Of a stretch of 32,873 bases of DNA, positions 2,534 to 32,873 are shown piece after piece (positions within the stretch are counted from its first letter, which is position 1; the number at the start of each line of letters is the position of its first letter). The stretch is taken from the sequence record SRR22947727_3747; one strand, given 5' to 3'. Under the pieces are notes generated by a model. That model saw nothing but the letters and a program-made list of their open reading frames with translations. It ran no database searches and was not told the origin of the DNA. Made by a program: the position numbers and the translations under genes.

Positions 2534-4659
2534 ATGAAATTATTTTGGCCTGTCCTCAGTGGTGTTTTGTGTACCGCGCATATTTCATTCGCCGAACCAA
2601 GGGTCACATATAACTCCTATGGCATGCCCGGTCTGGTCGATATGCCCAGCGCGCAATCGGCACCGGATGCAGAGTTGAGTTTTTCCGTTTCGCAATCGGG
2701 CGAGAGCCTGCGCAATACGTTAACGTTTCAGATTGCCCCCCGGCTGACGGGTGCCTTTCGCTACTCATCTATCGAAAGGCCACAAGGAACACTCTACGAC
2801 CGATCTTTTGATCTGCGCTACCGGCTGCTTGACGAAACGCATCTCCGGCCCGCCGTTGCCGCAGGTTTGCAAGATTTTATCGGTACGGGCGTCTATAGCG
2901 GCGAGTATGTCGCAGCGAGCAAAACCTTCGGCCCGGTGTCGCCACCGCAGGCATTGGGTGGGGCCGTTTGGGATCACATAATAGTTTTGACAATCCTCTT
3001 GGCGTGATTTCCAGCCGCTTTGATACCCGTGACGCGGGCTATACCGGCACTGGAGGGCGCATCGAATCCGCGCGCTGGTTTCGCGGTCCAGCGGCCTTTT
3101 TTGCCGGCTTTGCTTGGCCAGTGACCGACAAGGTCACGCTCAAAGCTGAATATTCCTCGGATGCATACACAAAGGAAGTTTCCTACGGCCATTTTGAGCA
3201 TCGCTCTCCTTTCAATCTGGCGCTTGATTATCAGATCAAACCCACCGTCCAGCTCACCGCCTATGCGCAACATGGTGACGAAATAGGCATTTTGGCCAGT
3301 CTGACGAGCAATCCAAAACACAGCCCGGGCGGCGCAACCCGCGATCCGGCCCCTATGCCGGTGTTACCGCGTGCCAAAGCCCAGGTCGCTCCTGCTGGGT
3401 GGTCAGAAATCCCATCCTTGCGCAACGCGCTGATCACCGCGCTGACCCCGGTGCTTCGGCAGGATGGCATCCAACTCATCGGTCTATCGCTGACCGATAC
3501 GACCGCCATTGCGACCGTCGAAAACCACCGCTATCAGTCGCAACCCCAAGCCATTGGCCATGTCGCGCGACTGTTGTCCAATGTCCTCCCAGCTTCCGTT
3601 GACACCATCGCCGTGGTTCCGATGGTCAAGGGCATTGCCGGCTCTCAAGTGATTTTCCCGCGCGATGCACTAGAAACCCATGAGGCCACCGCCACGGGCG
3701 CATCCGACATGCGCGCCGCGACAATCGTGACAGATGCCGCAGCCGTAGATCACAGAGCCGCGGCAGCCGAGGGCGTTTTTCCTCAATTCTCATGGTCCTT
3801 TGGGCCAGACGTCTCCGGATCCTTATTTGATCCAGATAATCCCGTGGCCTTATCACTTGGGGCAAAGCTGACAGCGGAGTGGGTGCCCGCAAAGGGGGTC
3901 TATGTCACCGGCACGCTTCGGCAAAATTTCGTGGACAACTACACCTCCACACCAAGATATTCCGATTCCATCATCACGCATGTGCGATCAGATTCCACGT
4001 TTTACGATCGCACCAACGGCCCGGTGCTTCAAGATCTCACCGCCAATTATCGCTTTCGGCCAGGAACCAATCTCTATGGCCGGTTCAGCGCCGGATATTT
4101 GGAGCGCATGTATGGCGGCCTATCTGCCGAGCTCTTGTGGAAACCTGTTGACAGCAAATTCGGTCTTGGCTTCGAGGTCAGCGCCATTCGCCAAAGAAGT
4201 TTCGACGGGCTTGGCTTTGCCCCGCTCACCGTCACGACAGCAGGTCTGGGCGCCCCAAGATCCTATGACACCATTACCGGGCATTTGTCCGGCTATTATG
4301 CTTTCGACAACGGGCTGCATGCACAACTCGATGTCGGTCGGTATCTGGCAAAAGACTGAGGGATGAGTGTGCAATTGAACCGGGAGTTCAACAACGGTTG
4401 GAAGGTCGGTGCCTATGCGACGCTGACCGATATTTCCTTTGATGATTTTGGCGAGGGATCTTTTGACAAAGGTATCGTCATGGAAATTCCAACCGCTTGG
4501 AGCATTGGCCGCCCAAGCCGTGTGAAACGGTCCGTGGTCATTCGTCCCCTCCTGCGCGATGGCGGTGCGAAATTGGATCTTTCGGATCGGCTATATGACC
4601 TGGTTCGTGACACCCATGTTCCGCAGCTTGAGGCCCAATGGGGCCGGTTTTGGAGGTAG
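2534..4659 (+). pseudogene. yjbH: YjbH/GfcD-family outer-membrane polysaccharide export protein, interrupted by a frameshift (~2939) and an in-frame TGA (4357-4359)
   Basis: Three consecutive ORFs carry successive parts of YjbH (YGMPGLVDMPSA..DRSFDLRY..GLQDFIGTG / GIGWGRLG..GYLERMYGG..GRYLAKD / FGEGSFDKG..WGRFWR); rejoined length about 708 aa. Confidence 0.85.
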
Positions 4660-23218: not shown

Positions 23219-23833
23219 TTGAGCCGTACAAACGCCCCCCGCTATCAAGCTGAAAATGGCTACCTCACACAGACCACCCGAAAATCCTACATAAAGCGAG
23301 CTGTAGAAGCCAGGCTTTTGCCCCCACGTGCGCGGCGCATGGAACAGATCACCTCACTGCAGGCGTCACAGGATCCGCAGATGCCCATCCAGTTTTGGCA
23401 GCTCTTTTCCGTTTTGGGGCCAGAGCCCATTGTCGGGATTGTTGCTGATTTTTATCAACGCGTGTTTGACGACGAGCCATGGTTCACATCGGTTTTCGCG
23501 CGGGTCGGCAACCTCAATCACCATATTTCAACGCAGGCCAGCATGTGGCTCGATGTCATGGGCGGCGGGCCTTATTACCACGGGGCAGAATTCAGGTTGA
23601 ATTTCCATCACACCCACAATGCCCATAGTTTGATGAATGAAGAAGGTGCGCGCCGCTGGGTCACACTCATGGTCGCTTCGCTAGAGGCCTCAAAGCCGTT
23701 AATGGGCGATGATCCTCGGGTGCGGGCGAGCCTCAACACGTTTCTCGCGCATTTCTTCGCAAAATATGCGCGGGATTTTCAGTTTGAAAACTGTGAAACA
23801 TTCGGGCCGATTAACCCGCCGGTCCTCCAATAA
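23219..23833 (+). CDS. Truncated (2/2) globin-like protein with N-terminal extension
   Basis: LG..IV..FY.RV..D...F...H......MGGG.YY.G....H pattern of truncated haemoglobins; TTG start after AAGGA. Confidence 0.6.
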   Translation: MSRTNAPRYQAENGYLTQTTRKSYIKRAVEARLLPPRARRMEQITSLQASQDPQMPIQFWQLFSVLGPEPIVGIVADFYQRVFDDEPWFTSVFARVGNLNHHISTQASMWLDVMGGGPYYHGAEFRLNFHHTHNAHSLMNEEGARRWVTLMVASLEASKPLMGDDPRVRASLNTFLAHFFAKYARDFQFENCETFGPINPPVLQ

Positions 23834-23859: not shown

Positions 23860-24816
23860 TTAAATGCGGTCAAAATCGAGCGAGTCGGCGACGATATCAA
23901 CCCGATCTTGCAAAGTATTGGGAAAGAGGCGGGCATAGCGTTCGGTCATAGAGATATTGTAATGCCCCAGCAATTGCTGAACCTCATAAATACTTGCGCC
24001 ATTGTTAATCAAAAGGCTGGCATAGGTGTGGCACAAGTCATGCATCCGAACGGAGCTCAGGCCCGCGCTGTCTCGAGCCTTAAAAAACGCAATATGCAAG
24101 CTGGTGTAGGGTTGGCCCGTGCGGGGGTTGGCGAACACCCAGCTGTCCCGGGTGATCGGCAGGCCCAGAGCCTCAGACCGCAATTTCACCTGCTCCAGAA
24201 CCGCCAGGGCTTTTTTGCTCAAAACCACTGTACGGCTGCGGCCACTTTTACTGACGGCAACAAAAAGCTCGCCCTTTTGCAAATCAATACAGGTCCATTT
24301 GGCCAGGCGCAGTTCGCTCTTTCGTGCCCCGGTGAGCAAGAGCAATTTGACAAATAAATGCAAGAACGGATGCGTGCTGCGCTTACAAGCGCTCAGCAGA
24401 CTTTTGATCTCCGTATGGGTTAAGAAGCGCTGCATATAATCGCCTGTTGGCAATTTCTTGATGACGACAGCTTTAAATGGGTTTGTATCGAGATAACCCC
24501 ATTGCACGGCAATGTTTAGAATTCTGTTCAACATGCTGGAATGCTTGTTCACCGTCGCAGGCTTGTAGCCCGCCTCCAATTGCGCCGTCATCCATAGGTC
24601 GAGATCCTGGCTGGTAATCTCCGCCAGGGTTTTTGGCCCAAAGATTGGCCTAATGTGTTTGTCGAACACATAGAGCTCCAATTGGCTCCGACGCTTGGTC
24701 GCCTTAGAGAACGCATAGTATTTATGATCGAAGAAATCTGCGAAACAGGAGAATTCTTGGAGACTGTTAGACGAATTGAAATCGGTTGTTTTAAAAATAT
24801 TTGAAAAAATAGACAT
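23860..24816 (-). CDS. Tyrosine recombinase (SAM-like core-binding + catalytic domain), HxxR Arg replaced by Cys
   Basis: PATVNK, TGARKSE (Arg I), SKSG (Lys), HDLCH (canonical HDLRH), LGH, TERY (Tyr); GAGGAGG RBS before ATG 24816. Confidence 0.93.
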   Translation of the reverse strand: MSIFSNIFKTTDFNSSNSLQEFSCFADFFDHKYYAFSKATKRRSQLELYVFDKHIRPIFGPKTLAEITSQDLDLWMTAQLEAGYKPATVNKHSSMLNRILNIAVQWGYLDTNPFKAVVIKKLPTGDYMQRFLTHTEIKSLLSACKRSTHPFLHLFVKLLLLTGARKSELRLAKWTCIDLQKGELFVAVSKSGRSRTVVLSKKALAVLEQVKLRSEALGLPITRDSWVFANPRTGQPYTSLHIAFFKARDSAGLSSVRMHDLCHTYASLLINNGASIYEVQQLLGHYNISMTERYARLFPNTLQDRVDIVADSLDFDRI

Positions 24817-24907
24817 ACTGAGGCCCTCCTCGAGCGCCTTGATACTGACAAACAACACTATTTGGAACTGATTCGTCTAAAAAGCAGTACCAATGGCTAA
24901 CTTTAGC

Positions 24908-25962
24908 ATGAAAGCATTCTCCTTACTTCTAGTGCTCTGGTGATGACCGCTGGTGTTGCCGCTGCAGAAGTTACCTTCTCAGGCACAGCAAAATTTGGTT
25001 ACAACGACACAGATCACGCAACTGGCGCATCTGTTGGCGCTGCTTTTTCGGACATTGATCTGAACATCGCATTTTCACAAGAGCTGAACAACGGCTACAC
25101 AGCCGCCGCTTCTTTTGAGTTTGACGTTGCCAATGCGGACCAAGGCGCGAGTTTCAATGCCTCTGATGCTGTGATCTCTTTGACAAATGCTGATTCCGGC
25201 ATCCACTATGGTGACACGAAACATGGCGCTGAAAACGCATGGTCTGCGGTTGGCTCCACGGATAACGACGACTTCCGTGTCGCAAAAAACGAAATGGTGA
25301 CCCGTGCTGACATGACCTTTGGCGGCGCAAAAATCGGCATCTCTTTGGGCGATGATACAAACATCTCCGGTACTGAAAAAGATTACATTTCACTCGGCAT
25401 CACAGGCTCTGCTGGCGCATTCTCCTATGCACTGGCCCATCAAAACGAAAACACCGCTACGCTGGACCCTGTTGACAAATTAGCAGCGACGCAACTCGCA
25501 ACAACCGGTGTTCGTGTGAGCACAACTTTGGGTGGCGCAACTGTTGCACTGGGTTATGCCAAAAACGACAATGGCGGTTCAACCGGCATTGAAGTCAGCT
25601 ACCCAATGGGCGCACTCACCACAACAGCATCTTACGTTCAAGAAGGCGCAGCTAGCGCAGAAAACAAATGGGATGTGAAAGTTGCCTATGCCGAAGGCGC
25701 ATTGGGTGTGACAGTTGCTACAGACGAAAGTCAGGACTGGAATGTTGACGTGTCCTACGACATGGGTAACGGCATGAACCTCTTCGTCGGTGCTGATGAC
25801 GGTGGCAAAGACACATATGCTGGTGTGAGCTATGATCTCGGCGGCGGTGCATCGCTCTTGGCATCCTACGCAAATGACAGCGACAACGATGATACTGACG
25901 ACGAAGTTGGTGCAAAAGACTACAAAGAAGGCATGACCTTCCAGCTTTCTTTCGCATTCTAA
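24908..25962 (+). pseudogene. Porin 1 (Rhodobacter-type general porin) with intact body but disabled 5' end (silent cassette or frameshifted gene)
   Basis: Signal peptide SILLTSSALVMTAGVAAA-E in the frame of 24913, but ATG 24908 is 1 nt out of frame and an in-frame TAG lies at 24904; beta-strand pattern, YDLGGGAS, C-terminal FAF. Confidence 0.85.
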
Positions 25963-25985
25963 GTCGATTGAAATCGAACCTTGAG

Positions 25986-26012
25986 AAGGCGGCCCGAAAG
26001 GGTCGCCTTTTT
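25986..26012 (+). terminator. Intrinsic terminator of porin 1
   Basis: AAGGCGGCCC-GAAA-GGGTCGCCTT followed by TTT. Confidence 0.9.
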
Positions 26013-26141
26013 CATTTTTGGATGATGATTTTTCGGCATGGATCCCTTGGAGCTCTGGAAACCTGAGCCAAAGCAGCCTATGACTGGCGGCGGGCGCCTA
26101 ATCTGGGTTTGGCCCATGAATATATAGACGAGGCAGATCTC

Positions 26142-28700
26142 ATGAGCAGCTATTCCCCCGCCGAAATCGAAGCCAAATGGCAAGAGGCATGGGCCAAAGG
26201 CGAGACCTTCAAGGCCGTGGCCACTGCCGATCGTCCGAAATATTATGTCCTGGAAATGTTCCCCTATCCATCGGGCCGCATTCACATGGGCCATGTCCGC
26301 AATTACACCATGGGCGATGTGATCGCGCGTTATAAGCTGTCTACCGGGCATAATGTTCTACACCCGATGGGCTGGGACGCCTTTGGCATGCCGGCCGAAA
26401 ACGCCGCGATGGCGATCGGTGGGCATCCAAAAGAATGGACCTATGACAACATCGCAACCATGCGCACACAGATGAAGCCCTTGGGCCTGTCCATCGATTG
26501 GTCGCGCGAGTTTGCCACCTGTGACCCTGAATATTACGGACAACAACAGGCGTTGTTTCTCGATATGCTTGCCAATGGTTTGGTCTATCGCAAGAATGCG
26601 ATGGTCAATTGGGATCCAGTCGATATGACGGTTCTGGCCAATGAGCAGGTGATTGACGGCAAAGGCTGGCGTTCCAATGCCGAGGTGGAACGCCGCGAGT
26701 TAACACAATGGTTCTTCAATATCTCATCGATGTCGGGCGAATTGCTCAGCGCCTTGGATGGGCTGGAAAACTGGCCTGCCAAAGTTCGGTTGATGCAGGA
26801 AAATTGGATCGGCCAATCGCGGGGGTTGGAAATGACCTTCCCGCTGACGACACCCCAAGATGGTCATGAGGGCATCACCGTTTACACCACCCGCCCCGAT
26901 ACATTGGTGGGCGCCTCATTCATTGGACTGGCCGCGAACCACCCACTGACCCAAAGCCTGGCAGCTCAAAACCCTGCCTTGGCGGAATTCTGTGCCGAAT
27001 GTAAGAAAATGGACACAACAGAAGCCGCTATGGAAAAGGCTGAAAAGAAGGGCTTTGATACCGGCATCACCGTGCAAAATCCGCTTGGCGGCGCGCCATT
27101 GCCTGTTTGGGTCGCCAATTTTGTGATGATGGATTACGGCACCGGCGCAATCTTCGCCTGCCCCGCCCATGACCAGCGCGACCTTGATTTTGCGCGGAAA
27201 TATGATCTGCCCGTGATTGATACCTTCTTTGCGCTCAACGATGATACACCCGTGACAGATGTGGCTTTCGTGCCGGCCAAAACGGAAACGGTGCGCTGGG
27301 TCAACCAACCGGCCGGCCTGCAAGAGGCCACGGGGCAAGAGGCGGTTGACGCCACCATCGATTGGGCCGAAGCGCAGGGGCTTGGCATCGGCAAAACGCA
27401 ATATCGTTTGCGCGATTGGGGATTGAGCCGACAACGCTATTGGGGGTGTCCGATTCCGGTGGTGCATTGTGACAGCTGCGGCGTTGTGCCGGAGAAAAAG
27501 GAAAACCTGCCAGTCCGCCTGCCTGATGATGTGACGTTTGACATTCCGGGGAACCCGTTGGATCGGCACCCCACTTGGCGCAACTGCGCCTGCCCCGCCT
27601 GCGGCAAGGCCGCCCGCCGCGAGACCGATACCATGGATACTTTCGTGGATTCCTCTTGGTATTATGCGCGCTTCACGGCCCCCAATGCCGCCACACCTAC
27701 GGATATGGCGGAGGCCAGCTATTGGATGAACGTCGATCAATATATTGGCGGCGTGGAACATGCGATTTTGCACCTGCTCTATTCGCGGTTCTTTGCCCGC
27801 GCCATGCAGATCTGTGGCCATTTGCCCCCTTCCGCGATTGAACCTTTTGACGCGCTTTTTACCCAGGGCATGGTCACCCATGCGATCTATAAATCAGAGG
27901 GCAAAGACGGCCGGCCTGTCTATCACTACCCCGAAGAGGTGGCACTCCGGGATGGAAAGGCTTTCTTGCTTGATGGCGGCGCTGAGGTCACCATTGTGCC
28001 GTCCGCAAAGATGTCGAAATCAAAAAATAACGTGGTGGATCCGATCAGCATCATCAGCAGCTACGGAGCCGATACGGCGCGGTGGTTTGTTCTGTCTGAC
28101 AGTCCGCCAGAGCGCGATGTGGAGTGGACCGCTTCTGGTGCGGAAGCGGCGTTTAAGCATTTGAACCGCGTCTGGCAACTTTGCGATAAAATTGCCAATA
28201 TGGACAAAAATCAATCTGGCGAGGGGGATAAGGATCTCCTGCGCGCGCTCCACAAAACCATTGTGGACGTCACATCGGGGGTGGAGAGTTTTGGCTTCAA
28301 TGCAGCAATTGCCAAGCTCTATGGTTTCACCGCAACATTAGCCAAATCCAAGGCCGGATATGCCGCGCAGCATGAGGCAATCAGGACCTTGGCGCAATTG
28401 ATGGCACCGATGACGCCGCATTTGGCAGAGGACATTTGGGCGCATCAAGGCGGGCAGGGGCTTATTGCCAATGCGCCTTGGCCGAAAGCAGATCCGGAGC
28501 TCTTGATCGAAGATGAGGTCACTTTGCCCATCCAAATCAACGGCAAACGCCGTGATGAGATCACTGTGGCCAAAGATATGAGCAAAGAAGAGCTGGAAGC
28601 CTTGGTGTTGCAGAATAACGCTGTGATGAAAGCGCTTGATGGTGCTACACCTAAGAAACTTGTCATTGTACCCGGACGTATCGTCAATGTGGTTATCTAG
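26142..28700 (+). CDS. leuS: Leucine--tRNA ligase
   Basis: [41 protein letters not shown]. Confidence 0.99.
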
Positions 28701-29157
28701 CCGACGCGGATTTCTAAGTGCAGCTCTTGCTCTGGCGGGCTGTGGGCTTACTCCTGTCATGGAGCCCAGCTCGCAGCAGCTTTACAATCAGGTCCTGATC
28801 CAAGCCCCGGTCAATCGGGCGGAATATGAGCTGGTGCGGAACTTAGAAGCGCAGCTTGGAGTCGCAAAAAGCGCGCGTTTTGCGTTGCATTATGAATTGA
28901 ACGTCACAGAGGACAATATCGTTGTCTCCGCCGCCCAAGAGATCAGCCGCTATAGCCTTGTCGGCGAGCTGGAGTATTCCTTGCGGGACAACAATGGCGC
29001 CATCCTAACCCACCAGAGTGCAAAATCATTCACCGGCTACTCCGCCACAGGCACCACCGTCGCCACCCAGCGGGCTCAGCGAGACGCCCATGACCGCTTA
29101 ATGGTCATTCTGGCAGACCAAGTCTCCACGGCGCTGCTGACACTGGACCTCCCATGA
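28687..29157 (+). CDS. lptE: LPS assembly lipoprotein LptE
   Basis: MWLSSRR..LAG-C lipobox; position between leuS and holA. Confidence 0.85.
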
Positions 29158-30179
29158 AGCTCTCCGCCCGCGACGCAGCGGCGGTTTTTGCGAAGCCCGA
29201 TCCCAACAAAACGGGGGTGTTGATCTATGGCGCCAATGCGATGCGTGTGGCGCTGAGGCGACAGCAATTGATCAAGGGGCTGATCGGCCCGCAGGGCGAA
29301 GAGGAAATGCGCCTCACGCGCCTGCAGGGCGGTGAGTTGCGACGCGACGGGGCCGCGCTGAATGATGCCATCAAAGCGGTTGGGTTTTTCCCCGGCCCGC
29401 GCGTGGTTCTCGTGGAAGACGCCAATGACAATTGCGCCGATGCAATCCTGGCGGGATTGGCCGATTGGCAGGCCGGTGATGCGCAGATGGTTGTCATTGG
29501 CGGCGCTCTAAAGCCGACATCAAAAATCCGCAAAGCTTTTGAAGCCCATCCCAATGCCTGGTCTATCGCCATTTTTGATGAACCGCCCACCCGCGCCGAA
29601 GTGGAGGCCGCTTTGGCAAAAGTCGGCATGGGCGCGGTCGACGCTGAGGCCAGCGCGGCCATTACAGATCTTTCCAAGGCCATAGATCCCGGTGATTTCA
29701 GTCAATTCTTGGAAAAATTGTCTTTATATTGCATGTCTCAAGCCGGACCAGTCACCCTAAGAGATGTTGAGATCTGCGCGCCGCAATCCACCGAAGCGGC
29801 GCTCGATGATGTCATTGGGTTGGTGGCCGATTTGAAAACAAATGAGATTGCCCCAGTGTTGCACCGCGTGATCGCTCAGGGCGGAACCGCCACCGGGCTT
29901 TGCATTGCCGCTTTGCGCCATTTTCGCCTTCTCCACGCCGCAGCCTCTGATCCAGCAGGCGCGCAGCAAGGTGTGGCAAAGCTTCGGCCGCCGGTTTACG
30001 GGCCACGTCGAGATCGGATCCAACGGCAGGTCGGCGCTTGGCGTCGAGACCGGCTGGAACAGGTGATTTCGCTTTTGCTAGACACTGATTTGCAGCTACG
30101 ATCTGCGGGGCAAACCGCGCCGCAAATGGCACAGGTTGAGAGATGTTTCATCCGAATTTCAATGATGGGGAAAAGATAA
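29154..30179 (+). CDS. holA: DNA polymerase III delta subunit
   Basis: LIYG, GFFPGPRVV, LEKLSLY, LRPPVYGPR; leuS-lptE-holA synteny. Confidence 0.93.
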   Translation: MKLSARDAAAVFAKPDPNKTGVLIYGANAMRVALRRQQLIKGLIGPQGEEEMRLTRLQGGELRRDGAALNDAIKAVGFFPGPRVVLVEDANDNCADAILAGLADWQAGDAQMVVIGGALKPTSKIRKAFEAHPNAWSIAIFDEPPTRAEVEAALAKVGMGAVDAEASAAITDLSKAIDPGDFSQFLEKLSLYCMSQAGPVTLRDVEICAPQSTEAALDDVIGLVADLKTNEIAPVLHRVIAQGGTATGLCIAALRHFRLLHAAASDPAGAQQGVAKLRPPVYGPRRDRIQRQVGAWRRDRLEQVISLLLDTDLQLRSAGQTAPQMAQVERCFIRISMMGKR

Positions 30180-30767
30180 ATGTATACGGTATTGGGTTCG
30201 ACCAAAAATCGAACTTTGCGAGTGATTTGGACGCTTGAGGAATTGGGCTTGCCCTATGATCAGGTCAAAGGCGACCCTGGCTCAGCAGAGGCCAAGGCGC
30301 ACAACCCCAGTGGTAAAGTGCCGGCCTTGGTGGTCGATGGAGAGGTTCTACCTGATAGCGTTGCGATCATGAGTTTTTTATCTGACCGTCACAATGCCCT
30401 AACCTTTCCAGCCGGATCTGTCGAACGGTTGCGCATGGATGGGCATATTCATTTCCTGCTCGAAGAATTCGACAGCCTACTCTGGGTTTCGGCGAAAAAC
30501 TCTTTTGTTAATCCGCCTGAGCACCGTGCCGCCGAAGTGAAGCCCGTGTTGAAATGGGAGTTTGAACGCAGTTTAAAGCGGCTTGAAGCCCGGCTTCAGG
30601 GCGCGTTCCTCATGGGCGAGCAGTTTACAATCGCCGACATTTTGGCAGTGCATTGCCTCAATTGGGCCTATACGGCGAAATTCCCAGACGCCAGCCCTGT
30701 TTTAAAGGACTATGCCAAACGCTGCCGAGCGCGTCCGGCCTATGTAAGGGCTTTAGCGGAAAGATAA
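30180..30767 (+). CDS. Glutathione S-transferase family protein
   Basis: RTLRVIWTLEELG, NPSGKVP, DSVAI, FTIADI. Confidence 0.92.
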   Translation: MYTVLGSTKNRTLRVIWTLEELGLPYDQVKGDPGSAEAKAHNPSGKVPALVVDGEVLPDSVAIMSFLSDRHNALTFPAGSVERLRMDGHIHFLLEEFDSLLWVSAKNSFVNPPEHRAAEVKPVLKWEFERSLKRLEARLQGAFLMGEQFTIADILAVHCLNWAYTAKFPDASPVLKDYAKRCRARPAYVRALAER

Positions 30768-31963
30768 TCAGCGGCCGCGCGGCCAGCCCAACGGCCGGTC
30801 GCGAGGCAGGCGGTGATCAAATAACCGCCCGTCGGTGCGTCCCAATCTAGCATCTCACCGGCGCAAAATACGCCCGGGAAATCCCGAAGCATCAACTCGG
30901 GTGTCAATGCGTCCCATGACAGCCCACCAGCTGTTGAGATGGCCTCATCTATAGGGCGCGGTCCCGAGACCTGCAGCGGCGCAGCTTTGATTGCAGCAAT
31001 AAGCCCATCGGTATCGCGGGGCATAGGGCGGGTCAGCTCAAACAGCAGGGCTCGTTTTGTGGCATCCAGTTTGACGGATTTTCGCAAGAAATTGCTCAGA
31101 CTGTCCTTGGGCTTGCGATTTGAAATCATGTCCCTCAAGGCGTGGATCGAAAGCTGTGGCGCCAAATCAATCCGGGCCAAAGGGGTCTGCCGCAGCATCC
31201 GCCCCAGCGCATAGATTGCCCCACCTTCCACACCGGATTGTGTGATCACAAATTCACCACGGCTTCGCTGATCTGCGACGGTAAGCTCGATATTCTTTAC
31301 GGGTTGGCCAAAAAACGGGCGCATATGATCCGACCAAGCGCGCTGCAGTCCCACATTTGACGCTTGAATAGGGACAATCGGCACGCCCGCCGCCGCGACT
31401 GGCGTTTGCCAAGCGCCATCAGACCCTAAACGCGCCCAACTCGCGCCACCGAGCGCGAGGATCAACGCCCCGGCCGTCACGGCGACCTGGCCCTTTGGCG
31501 TGGCCAGCAGATGCGGCGCATCTGTGGTCAATGGACCGATCCATCGGTGGCGGCGCAGCAATACAACACCCAGCGCATCGAGCCGCGCCAGCCACGCCCG
31601 CAGAAGGGGAGACGCTTTCATGCGCGTCGGAAAAACCCGGCCTGTGCTGCCTGTGAAGACCTCCTGCCCAAGGCCTTGCGCAAAGCCGATGACCTCAGCC
31701 GGCCCAAATTGCGCTAGAATGGGCTTCAAGGGGGCGATGGTGTCAAAATGCTGCAAGAACGTGTTGGGCTCTTCTGCCTTGGTTAGGTTGAGACCAGATT
31801 TTCCAGCCATGAGAAATTTTCGTGCAGGGGAGGGCATCGCCTCAGCTATTGCCACACGCATCCCAGCCCGCGCGGCTTGCTCTGCCGCCATCAGCCCGGC
31901 TGGGCCCGCGCCCACAACCAATAGGTCAAACACATTTTGAGACTGGGCTTGGGCGTGATCCAT
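30740..31963 (-). CDS. NAD(P)/FAD-dependent oxidoreductase (HI0933/BaiN-like flavoprotein)
   Basis: GAGPAG, RKFLMAGKSGLNLT, GRVFP, EAISTAGG, GEMLDWDAPTGGY. Confidence 0.92.
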   Translation of the reverse strand: MDHAQAQSQNVFDLLVVGAGPAGLMAAEQAARAGMRVAIAEAMPSPARKFLMAGKSGLNLTKAEEPNTFLQHFDTIAPLKPILAQFGPAEVIGFAQGLGQEVFTGSTGRVFPTRMKASPLLRAWLARLDALGVVLLRRHRWIGPLTTDAPHLLATPKGQVAVTAGALILALGGASWARLGSDGAWQTPVAAAGVPIVPIQASNVGLQRAWSDHMRPFFGQPVKNIELTVADQRSRGEFVITQSGVEGGAIYALGRMLRQTPLARIDLAPQLSIHALRDMISNRKPKDSLSNFLRKSVKLDATKRALLFELTRPMPRDTDGLIAAIKAAPLQVSGPRPIDEAISTAGGLSWDALTPELMLRDFPGVFCAGEMLDWDAPTGGYLITACLATGRWAGRAAADYLSAKALT

Positions 31964-32112
31964 ATTAGGTGGATCCTTGCGAAGGTGCCGGTGAGCTTAT
32001 CATTTTGTGTTCCGTGACCGCTGCTGCCCCGTCGATAGCGCCGGCCCTTCTGCCGCGCAACGAAGAATTGCGCAATGTCACATCAAACGCGCTGCAATGC
32101 GACAGGCGCAAC

Positions 32113-32142
32113 AAAAAAGAGCGACGCCGAAGCGCCGCTCTC
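32113..32142 (-). terminator. Intrinsic terminator of porin 2
   Basis: Minus strand AGAGCGGCGC-TTCG-GCGTCGCTCT followed by a T-run. Confidence 0.9.
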
Positions 32143-32165
32143 TCTTTAACCGAAGTTGGTTTCGC

Positions 32166-32873
32166 TTAGAATGCGAAGTTCAGACCAACAGTTGTCAGGT
32201 CGTCGGCTGTACCAGCTTTGTCGTGTATTGCTGCGAAAGCAGATGCGCCGCCACCGAGTGCGAAATCAGCAATGATTGTAGTCGCGTCTGTTTCGTCAAG
32301 AGCGAAAGATGCAACCAATGCGCCCGCTGTGTATTTAACAGAAGCGTCCCACTCGTCACCGAAAGTACCGGCAGAACCTGGCTTGATTGTTGTGTAACCA
32401 ACAGTCAAAGCGTCCATTGCGTATGAGAAACCAACTGATGAATCGTCTTCAGCGTCGTTTGACTCGTCGGACATAGCAGCGCTCACAGTCAAATCACCCA
32501 TTGCGTAAGATGCAGAGATGCCAGTAGCGCTACCGCCAGCGTCGTCGTTGTTTGTGCCAGTGAATGTGAGTGCTACGCCAGCAATGTTGCCGCCGACTTT
32601 GTAAGAGCTTGTAGAACCTTCTTGATCGGATGTCATTGCGACACTCCAACCAGCAATGGAGCCAGCGATTCTTACGTCTTGTGCGCCATCAGTGTCATCA
32701 AACAAGTTGTCGATGCCAGCTTGGTCTACAGTCAATGTCCAGCCGTTGTATGAAACTGCAACGTCTGCGTCACCGACGGTGTTGCCTTGTGCTTCAAGCA
32801 CATCGTCATCGTTATAGTCGATTTTGCTACCAGCGCCCATCACCAAGTTGGCAAATGCTGGCATCAACGTGCG
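32166..32873 (-). CDS. Porin 2 (Rhodobacter-type porin), 5' part outside the window
   Basis: Amphipathic beta-strands, repeated SYAM strands, FALGGGAS, C-terminal FAF; ORF open to the window edge. Confidence 0.88.
   Translation of the reverse strand, partial: RTLMPAFANLVMGAGSKIDYNDDDVLEAQGNTVGDADVAVSYNGWTLTVDQAGIDNLFDDTDGAQDVRIAGSIAGWSVAMTSDQEGSTSSYKVGGNIAGVALTFTGTNNDDAGGSATGISASYAMGDLTVSAAMSDESNDAEDDSSVGFSYAMDALTVGYTTIKPGSAGTFGDEWDASVKYTAGALVASFALDETDATTIIADFALGGGASAFAAIHDKAGTADDLTTVGLNFAF

Follow-up and report, generated by a model that had tools for sequence, protein, structure and literature searches.

Why does a lone tyrosine recombinase gene stand directly against a porin gene without a start, in a stretch of DNA that runs out within a second and different porin facing the first? 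This question is raised by sequence record SRR22947727_3747, a stretch of 32,873 nucleotides (the window) from the Planktomarina temperata lineage. An earlier note on this DNA, made from the letters alone, had proposed a switch in which a recombinase inverts the segment between the two porins. We find the anatomy of a two-site porin locus, an inversion of this locus relative to the outgroups, a family-wide pairing of the recombinase with start-less porins, and a reciprocal flip in another genus. Our answer is that the window probably holds the silent half of a two-site, recombinase-linked porin expression system, which would be frozen and decaying in the P. temperata lineage.

In the proposed mechanism, the recombinase and porin 1 would form the silent half. 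The site beside yggS would hold the sole promoter, ribosome-binding site (RBS) and ATG and would drive porin 2 now. At the recombinase there would be a porin body whose ATG is one base off frame and which has neither promoter nor RBS. The two sites face each other, and recombination in a short shared core at signal-peptide codons 3-7 would flip the block from leuS to HI0933 and swap the bodies. The adjacent recombinase would catalyse the exchange. The modules may arrive as small integrative elements, which would plug a promoter-less porin into the start signals of the host. Inversion as a mechanism is well supported for the family, and it plausibly made the present map of the window.

Anatomy of the two porin sites

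The genes of the window were taken from the open reading frame (ORF) listing and Pfam. The 5' end of porin 2 and the DNA beyond it were read from G001, the nearest complete genome (a single 3.29-Mb contig), as a colinear stand-in with 97% identity. The features are as follows.

23219-23833, + strand: globin-like gene (ORF listing)
23860-24858, - strand: tyrosine recombinase (Pfam PF00589, Phage_integrase, E 3e-31)
24859-24913, no strand: recombinase-side arm, intergenic, which keeps to the recombinase whatever porin body comes next (junction alignment)
24908-24943, + strand: out-of-frame ATG and 11-codon dead-end frame with TGA at 24941-24943 (frame reading, junction alignment)
24913-25962, + strand: porin 1, start-less body of 349 codons plus the stop at 25960-25962 (Pfam Porin_4)
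24914-24926, + strand: candidate recombination core GCATTCTCCTTAC, signal-peptide codons 3-7 (boundary between locus-specific and body-specific sequence)
25983-26012, + strand: intrinsic terminator of porin 1 (terminator scan)
26109-31963, both strands: housekeeping block with leuS, lptE, a holA-like gene and GST (+) and an HI0933-like flavoprotein (-) (ORFs, Pfam)
about 32113-32143, - strand: terminator of porin 2, hairpin and T-run, belonging to a 3' end common to several porin cassettes
32166-32873 (window edge), - strand: last 235 codons of porin 2 (ORF and a porin profile built for this analysis)

Porin 1 is a porin, as the earlier note had it (Pfam Porin_4, E 4e-20, profile positions 7-309 of 310), but its description as one gene over 24908-25962 joins two frames, because ATG 24908 and the porin body do not share one. 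From this ATG, one base out of frame with the body, 11 codons lead to a TGA. The frame of the body is closed upstream by the TAG at 24904-24906 and is open from 24907 to its stop at 25960-25962. Compared with the in-frame expression-site start of other porins in the genus (ATGAAACGC...), the junction at ATG 24908 is one base short. No Shine-Dalgarno-like run was found before porin 1, and a simple scan of 24700-24940 gave no promoter-like site; the lack of a usable start and RBS noted earlier is thus borne out. Thirty of the 36 aligned junctions are of the window type (from the window itself, G001, G018 and 27 metagenome contigs), and every one of them has the identical out-of-frame start. Therefore it is no sequencing error, and porin 1 is a silent cassette. 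A slippage-prone homopolymer behind the frameshift was considered and rejected, as the run has just three A's and is unchanged in 30 of 30 junctions.

The recombinase-side arm is nearly invariant over the same 30 junctions, and blocks of it are partly kept in the lineages of contigs L051 and L053. In genome G003 and contig L055 a 109-nt deletion joins codon 19 of the recombinase to the core. The ATG and the whole intergenic region are gone there, and the body is open. The same deletion was also seen in one contig of run X16. Premature stops interrupt 7 of 28 complete porin 1 bodies, one such stop being common to three contigs, and the other 21 are open. The body is hypervariable (20 unique alleles among 21, median synonymous divergence dS 0.24), and the ratio of nonsynonymous to synonymous divergence (dN/dS) is 0.44 and near 0.9 in the closest pairs. 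The flanks are 99-100% identical. The 5' (signal-peptide) sequence of porin 1 is similar to that of expression-site porins of the outgroups, and porin 1 is a descendant of the ancestral leuS-linked porin.

Porin 2 faces porin 1 from the opposite strand and is about 27-30% identical to it, so that the two are clearly different porins, each with its own terminator, as had been described. Its 235-aa piece in the window has no Pfam match at E 1e-3 and matches the porin profile built here with E 3e-47. G001 has the whole gene, which runs divergently from yggS and starts with a GAGGGA-type RBS and an ATG. To the right of the window, before porin 2, stand the sole good promoter, RBS and ATG of the G001 locus, where the earlier note had placed the single start. 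The promoter, RBS and ATGAAACGCATCC... of the yggS side are kept in 10 of 10 genus loci read, and the body that follows varies. Porin 2 of the window is 74% identical to the expressed porin 2 of G001 and 86% to a silent porin of G003 at locus L031. The porin cassettes share conserved sequence at both ends, and an 80-nt terminator module is among the shared parts. From this identity pattern and the shared 3' ends it follows that bodies move between strains and loci. Expression-site bodies are also replaced between strains without inversion, for example by the Z body of G003. The hypervariability of porin 1 and the mobility of the bodies imply that selection acted on bodies at some time.

Some further observations concern these porin sites. 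The window (at 32873) and the contigs of G017 and G018 (L016, L018) all stop within porin 2, which suggests that population-level hypervariability of porin 2 breaks assemblies. A second storage site is the dapF locus. In G003 (L031, G003:C2 about 810-812 kb) it has a silent porin 2-type body and a recombinase paralogue of 59% identity; in G021 (L080) it has a porin fragment, in G012 (L081) and G017 it is empty, and in G001 it has about 3.4 kb of other DNA. In G012 an inserted, frameshifted recombinase paralogue (62%) separates yggS from its neighbour, at about 1.2 kb from the expression site (L015 14447-15312), and porin 2 of this genome has small indels that may be assembly errors. In G011 (L026, about 300-380 of the stretch read) an N run lies within the porin 5' region, between duplicated RBS/start segments.

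The 5' ends of both porins pair in the longest inverted repeat of the G001 locus. It spans 79 nt with 59 identical and a longest exact run of 8, and the arms differ by an indel and a mismatch. The near-identical inverted copy of the porin 1 5' end, preceded by an RBS, that the earlier note had expected is therefore not present; porin 2 starts with ATGAAACGC, not with ATGAAAAGC. The core shared with the expression site is CTCCTTAC (8 nt), preceded by GCAT. It marks a boundary with locus-specific sequence to its left and body-specific sequence to its right, and is the sole such site in the window. A start-less porin abuts the recombinase in four lineages of the genus, namely the window type, L051/L052 (85% identical), L053 (80%) and L031 of G003 (59%), and the junction lies at codons 1-3 in each of them. 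In the three closer lineages the recombinase-side sequence ends with AAGCATTCTCCTTAC, any body following. Since both sides are conserved whatever the body, the sequence left of the core is locus-specific and the body right of the core is exchangeable. The window has no further porin or recombinase and no second core-like site.

Inversion in the genus and recombinase-porin pairing in the family

In the genus survey leuS was located in 19 of 23 genomes, and 14 loci were examined besides that of G001. The clade of the window comprises eight genomes, the window itself and G001, G003, G012, G017, G018, G021 and G002. Its gene order is SDR-globin-int-porin1-leuS...HI0933-porin2-yggS. The outgroups, other Planktomarina species, have a different order. 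All six with this flank visible (G004, G013, G015, G011, G008 and G022) read yggS(-) porin(+) leuS(+), and in both with the HI0933 flank visible (G022 and G005) HI0933 is directly followed by globin-SDR. The window clade therefore carries the leuS-HI0933 block in inverted form, with porin 2 still on the ancestral promoter side and porin 1 still on the ancestral leuS side.

In the leuS tree the window clade is monophyletic (100/100). Contig L051 has the inverted state, yet it groups with the un-inverted G004 (100/100), so that parsimony requires at least two orientation changes in the genus. L051 and the window clade do not have the same globin-recombinase junction, so that either independent events or a later deletion may lie behind it. 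To be noted, G004 has a pair of IS3-type transposase genes at a contig end past HI0933 (L020 12422-13267), where a silent module is expected if G004 is un-inverted with the module.

In all eight clade genomes the block has the orientation of the window, as it has in all 32 informative metagenome contigs. These contigs come from a metagenome scan with the recombinase, which gave 37 loci. In 22 of them the window-type recombinase, or a remnant of it, occurs together with leuS, always in the window orientation, and in 10 further contigs the window-type recombinase adjoins a porin 1-type body. L051 is the one contig in which the 85% lineage adjoins leuS; L052, L053, L054 and L070 gave no verdict on window-type orientation. 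None of the 37 contigs has a window-type recombinase adjoining a porin 2 body or HI0933, and no porin 1-type body is at the yggS site in the six clade genomes read there. The earlier idea that about 8 kb flips at inverted repeats in the signal-peptide regions thus holds in that the block is inverted against the outgroups and no inverted repeat of the locus is longer than that of the two 5' ends, but the second orientation does not appear in the clade. The eight genomes and 32 contigs show no case of both orientations within one strain or population; the two states are seen only between species.

The pairing extends well beyond this genus. In 401 Rhodobacteraceae genomes searched at a threshold of E <= 1e-55, 15 have a homologue of the recombinase; outside G001 the homologues are 43-77% identical and belong to 14 other genera. 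In 13 of 14 loci of these genera a porin lies within about 515 bp of the recombinase, mostly in the yggS/leuS neighbourhood (Pfam was checked on eight porins of the family loci). In six loci of five genomes the porin is divergent from the recombinase and start-less. The other layouts are one divergent porin with a start, five with the porin followed by the recombinase and one convergent pair.

One case is the genus g311. In G338 the order is body L (silent), recombinase, holA, lptE, leuS, promoter/ATG, body R, yggS. In G452 and G454 the central block is inverted, with body L on the promoter and body R on the recombinase side, and G451 has no module. The L bodies are 85.7% identical to each other and the R bodies 86.2%, and L and R share 74-76%. 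The upstream arms keep to their own side, and the crossover falls within a 17-nt core (17/17) at signal-peptide codons 2-7. Judged from these maps, g311, a sister genus, shows between its species the reciprocal inversion that the earlier note envisaged.

A different arrangement is found in G206, with the order yggS, start, porin b, a second tyrosine recombinase of 200 aa, small ORFs, recombinase, start-less porin a, leuS. A perfect direct repeat of 74 nt, beginning right after codon 3, flanks an integrated element. In the same genus, 8 of 13 genomes have 0.76-1.26 kb between the leuS and yggS matches, which is space for one porin. The map of G206 thus reads as an integrated element that would express its own porin from the start signals of the host. 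Direct repeats and empty sites, the marks of an integrative element, are found for G206 and not for the window, which has its sites in inverted orientation and lacks an insert. No tRNA gene as an integration target was found in the window either.

State of the recombinase and rival explanations

The recombinase has 332 aa from a GTG or 318 aa from the ATG at 24816, which is the likely start. It begins 50-92 bp from the porin 1 junction and is the lone tyrosine recombinase of the window, as noted earlier. The catalytic domain matches PF00589 with 108.9 bits against a cut-off of 27.1. In the NCBIfam models for Xer proteins, integron integrases and invertases it stays under every curated cut-off; the best score is XerA_Arch (98.6 bits vs 220), and integrase_gron and PRK09870 give 49.8 vs 265 and 46.3 vs 221. 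An integron was considered and rejected: the integrase is far under the integron model, and after porin 1 there is a plain terminator and no attC-like element. The G+C content falls to 0.44-0.49 over the 5' half of the recombinase and the junction.

The motifs TGARKSEL, LLGH and ERY are all retained. The HxLRH box, however, is HDLCH in the window, with TGC (Cys) as codon 24031-24033; G001 has CGC (Arg). This Cys occurs in one of 40 recombinase copies, that of the window, and the 39 others, including G001, have Arg. It aligns with the HxLRH-box Arg of XerA (5hxy) and XerD (1a0p), which we take to be a catalytic and essential residue. The catalytic set of Arg I, His, Arg II, His/Trp and Tyr is thus incomplete in the window, with Arg II replaced by Cys, and the enzyme would have lost a catalytic arginine. 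Because of this substitution, phase variation in this strain today is unlikely, and it finds no support.

Decay is also seen in the relatives. The recombinase is broken in G003 and missing from G002, and G012, G017 and G021 have only fragments of it. In these last three genomes and in G002, porin 1 is lost or truncated at its 5' end. Among the metagenome contigs, 12 of 37 have a damaged gene (8 with the recombinase split into two matches and 4 with remnants). A full-length recombinase with the Arg box is present in G001, G018 and 14 metagenome contigs. The system looks frozen in one state and decaying in the P. temperata lineage.

Strand-changing joints between the two sites were sought in the contigs of two DNA and two RNA runs, aligned to L001:2500-13896, and none was found in the contigs of these four runs. 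As contigs drop rare variants, this negative is no argument against rare flipping. The joints that were seen are replacements of porin alleles and deletions of the G003 type (4305 to 4415). Loose contig ends at the expression-site core lead to other bodies or upstream DNA, most simply of other species. The depth of the RNA libraries is flat over genes and spacers and thus gives no information on expression, since DNA carry-over could account for it.

Several points weigh against a frozen and decaying two-site system. The shared core has just 8 nt plus 4 nt, and the inverted repeat has only 59 of 79 nt identical. The second orientation change in the genus hangs on the single metagenome contig L051, and no Planktomarina genome examined has the un-inverted state together with the module. 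Assembly errors may account for some of the frameshifts in metagenome contigs, and rare flipped cells are compatible with the contig data. The hypervariability of porin 1 beside near-identical flanks hints at selection on porin 1, and so at its expression at some time. A different path, in which integration took place at the porin start and int...HI0933 was inverted later in an unrelated event, may also have given this map.

A living version of the system is a tentative proposal, and we rather doubt it. Here abundant marine Roseobacters would possess a programmed porin-exchange system of small modules, each with a recombinase and a start-less porin, which would insert at the promoter and start codon of the major porin and later invert or excise. 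The 8-kb block would flip in those P. temperata strains whose recombinase is intact, too rarely to be visible in assemblies.

An active and reversible phase-variation switch in this strain or species, in which the 8 kb flips and cells alternate between porin 1 and porin 2, is unlikely. The locus anatomy would suit it, as would the full-length Arg-box recombinases of G001, G018 and 14 contigs, the mostly open (21/28) and diverse porin 1 bodies with their dN/dS of 0.44, and the occurrence of both states in another genus. However, the flipped form is present in 0 of 8 genomes and 0 of 32 informative contigs, and no porin 1-type body was met at the yggS site of six clade genomes. The Cys in place of the catalytic Arg in the window recombinase, the short core, the indel between the arms and the module decay in relatives all point away from such a switch.

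Homologous recombination between paralogous signal-peptide sequences, with the recombinase as a passenger, is improbable. RecA-type exchange usually needs longer exact identity than the 8 nt at the crossover here or the 17 nt in g311, and the recombinase gene is at the junction in every case. The conserved cassette ends with their 80-nt terminator module would fit this explanation, and so would the bodies swapped at the expression site without inversion, such as the Z body of G003.

That the two genes are chance neighbours, porin 1 an ordinary decaying pseudogene and the recombinase a leftover of an unrelated island, is quite improbable. In its favour are the joint loss of the two in several relatives, the interruption of 7 of 28 bodies, and a G+C content of 0.44-0.49 at the recombinase 5' half and junction. 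Chance would not readily give pairing at the same codons in four genus lineages, pairing in six loci of five other genomes, a porin within about 515 bp in 13 of 14 family loci, and a reciprocal exchange at the core in g311.

The weakest explanation, very unlikely in our view, is that porin 1 is expressed as it is, from a non-canonical start (ATT 24916, CTG 24937, GTG 24940) or by frameshifting, so that both porins are made and nothing flips: the body is open with dN/dS below 1 and RNA-library contigs span the region (with the flat depth that DNA carry-over could explain), but a GTG or CTG start would leave a signal peptide of about 9-10 residues and ATT no charged N-region, there is neither an RBS nor a promoter-like site, G003 and L055 keep the body open without the ATG and the intergenic region, and the analogous copies in other genera are start-less too. 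The two-site expression system with a silent, decaying half is thus the explanation that we retain for the window.

Relation to known systems and minor observations

The vsa locus of Mycoplasma pulmonis and the vpma locus of M. agalactiae carry a tyrosine recombinase gene. As described in section 1.8 of PMC4534519, each has one expression site with a promoter and N-terminal coding DNA, and silent genes without a functional 5' end that inversion joins to the 5' part of the expression site. Within the scope of that section, the window system would be alike in its single expression site, its silent genes without a 5' end and the inversion that joins them. The locus shows two features of such a switch, as one site has the promoter, start and N-terminal codons, a silent copy is without them and a recombinase gene is present. 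Unlike vsa and vpma as outlined there, the cargo is a Gram-negative Porin_4 porin in Alphaproteobacteria and there are two bodies only. The sites are separated by an 8-kb block with essential genes, modules are also found as integrated elements with direct repeats, and no flipping is seen within the lineage of the window.

Other systems are similar in part. The multiple-inversion system omp1 of Dichelobacter nodosus swaps genes for outer-membrane proteins through site-specific inversion, at sites within 5' coding sequence. The placement of the inversion site is similar, in a different bacterial class. Elements specific for dusA enter a host gene at its 5' end and provide a substitute for that end. 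The G206 element is like them in lying after porin codon 3, with a 74-nt direct repeat and an integrase at one end. However, dusA-type elements repair their target gene, while the G206 element would use the host start signals for its own porin and silence the resident one. The R64 shufflon (Rci) and the outer-membrane protein shufflons of Bacteroides have a locus-encoded tyrosine recombinase and short sites inside coding DNA. Shufflons exchange C-terminal segments or promoters at many sites, whereas the window system would exchange whole mature proteins behind a fixed stub of start and signal peptide. A full-text literature search over main texts found no account of such a porin system in Roseobacters or elsewhere. 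In the passages of the RCA-phage paper PMC6918029 on the integrase and the integration site, integration is reported at a tRNA-Met gene and porins are unmentioned.

Planktomarina (RCA cluster) is among the most abundant coastal bacteria, and its major porin is a nutrient gate and likely phage receptor. If our explanation is true, the exchange of whole porins behind a fixed start would give free-living marine bacteria a new way of varying their surface. This would have a bearing on the causes of hypervariability at porin loci and of the breaks in metagenome assemblies there, on the strain-level diversity of Planktomarina populations, and on a mobile-element strategy in which cargo is expressed from the start signals of the host. 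If the exchange system is living, a change of the pore would alter the phage receptor displayed by the cell. The window itself would be a frozen example, with its main value as a lead into the recombinase-porin family.

Two minor observations concern the recombinases and their surroundings. A second small tyrosine recombinase (163-200 aa, PF00589) or a fragment of one occurs in G004 (L020 5520-6011), G003 (L031 6713-6937) and G206 (L098 11857-12459). These small genes are convergent to the porin cassettes and lie just downstream of them, and could be a second recombination function of the element. The globin-like gene at 23219-23833 ends about 45 codons before the end of its orthologues, which have a C-terminal tail in G004, G005, G022 and L051. 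The 3' end of the recombinase joins 26 bp past the globin stop and seems to have removed the globin tail in the window clade.

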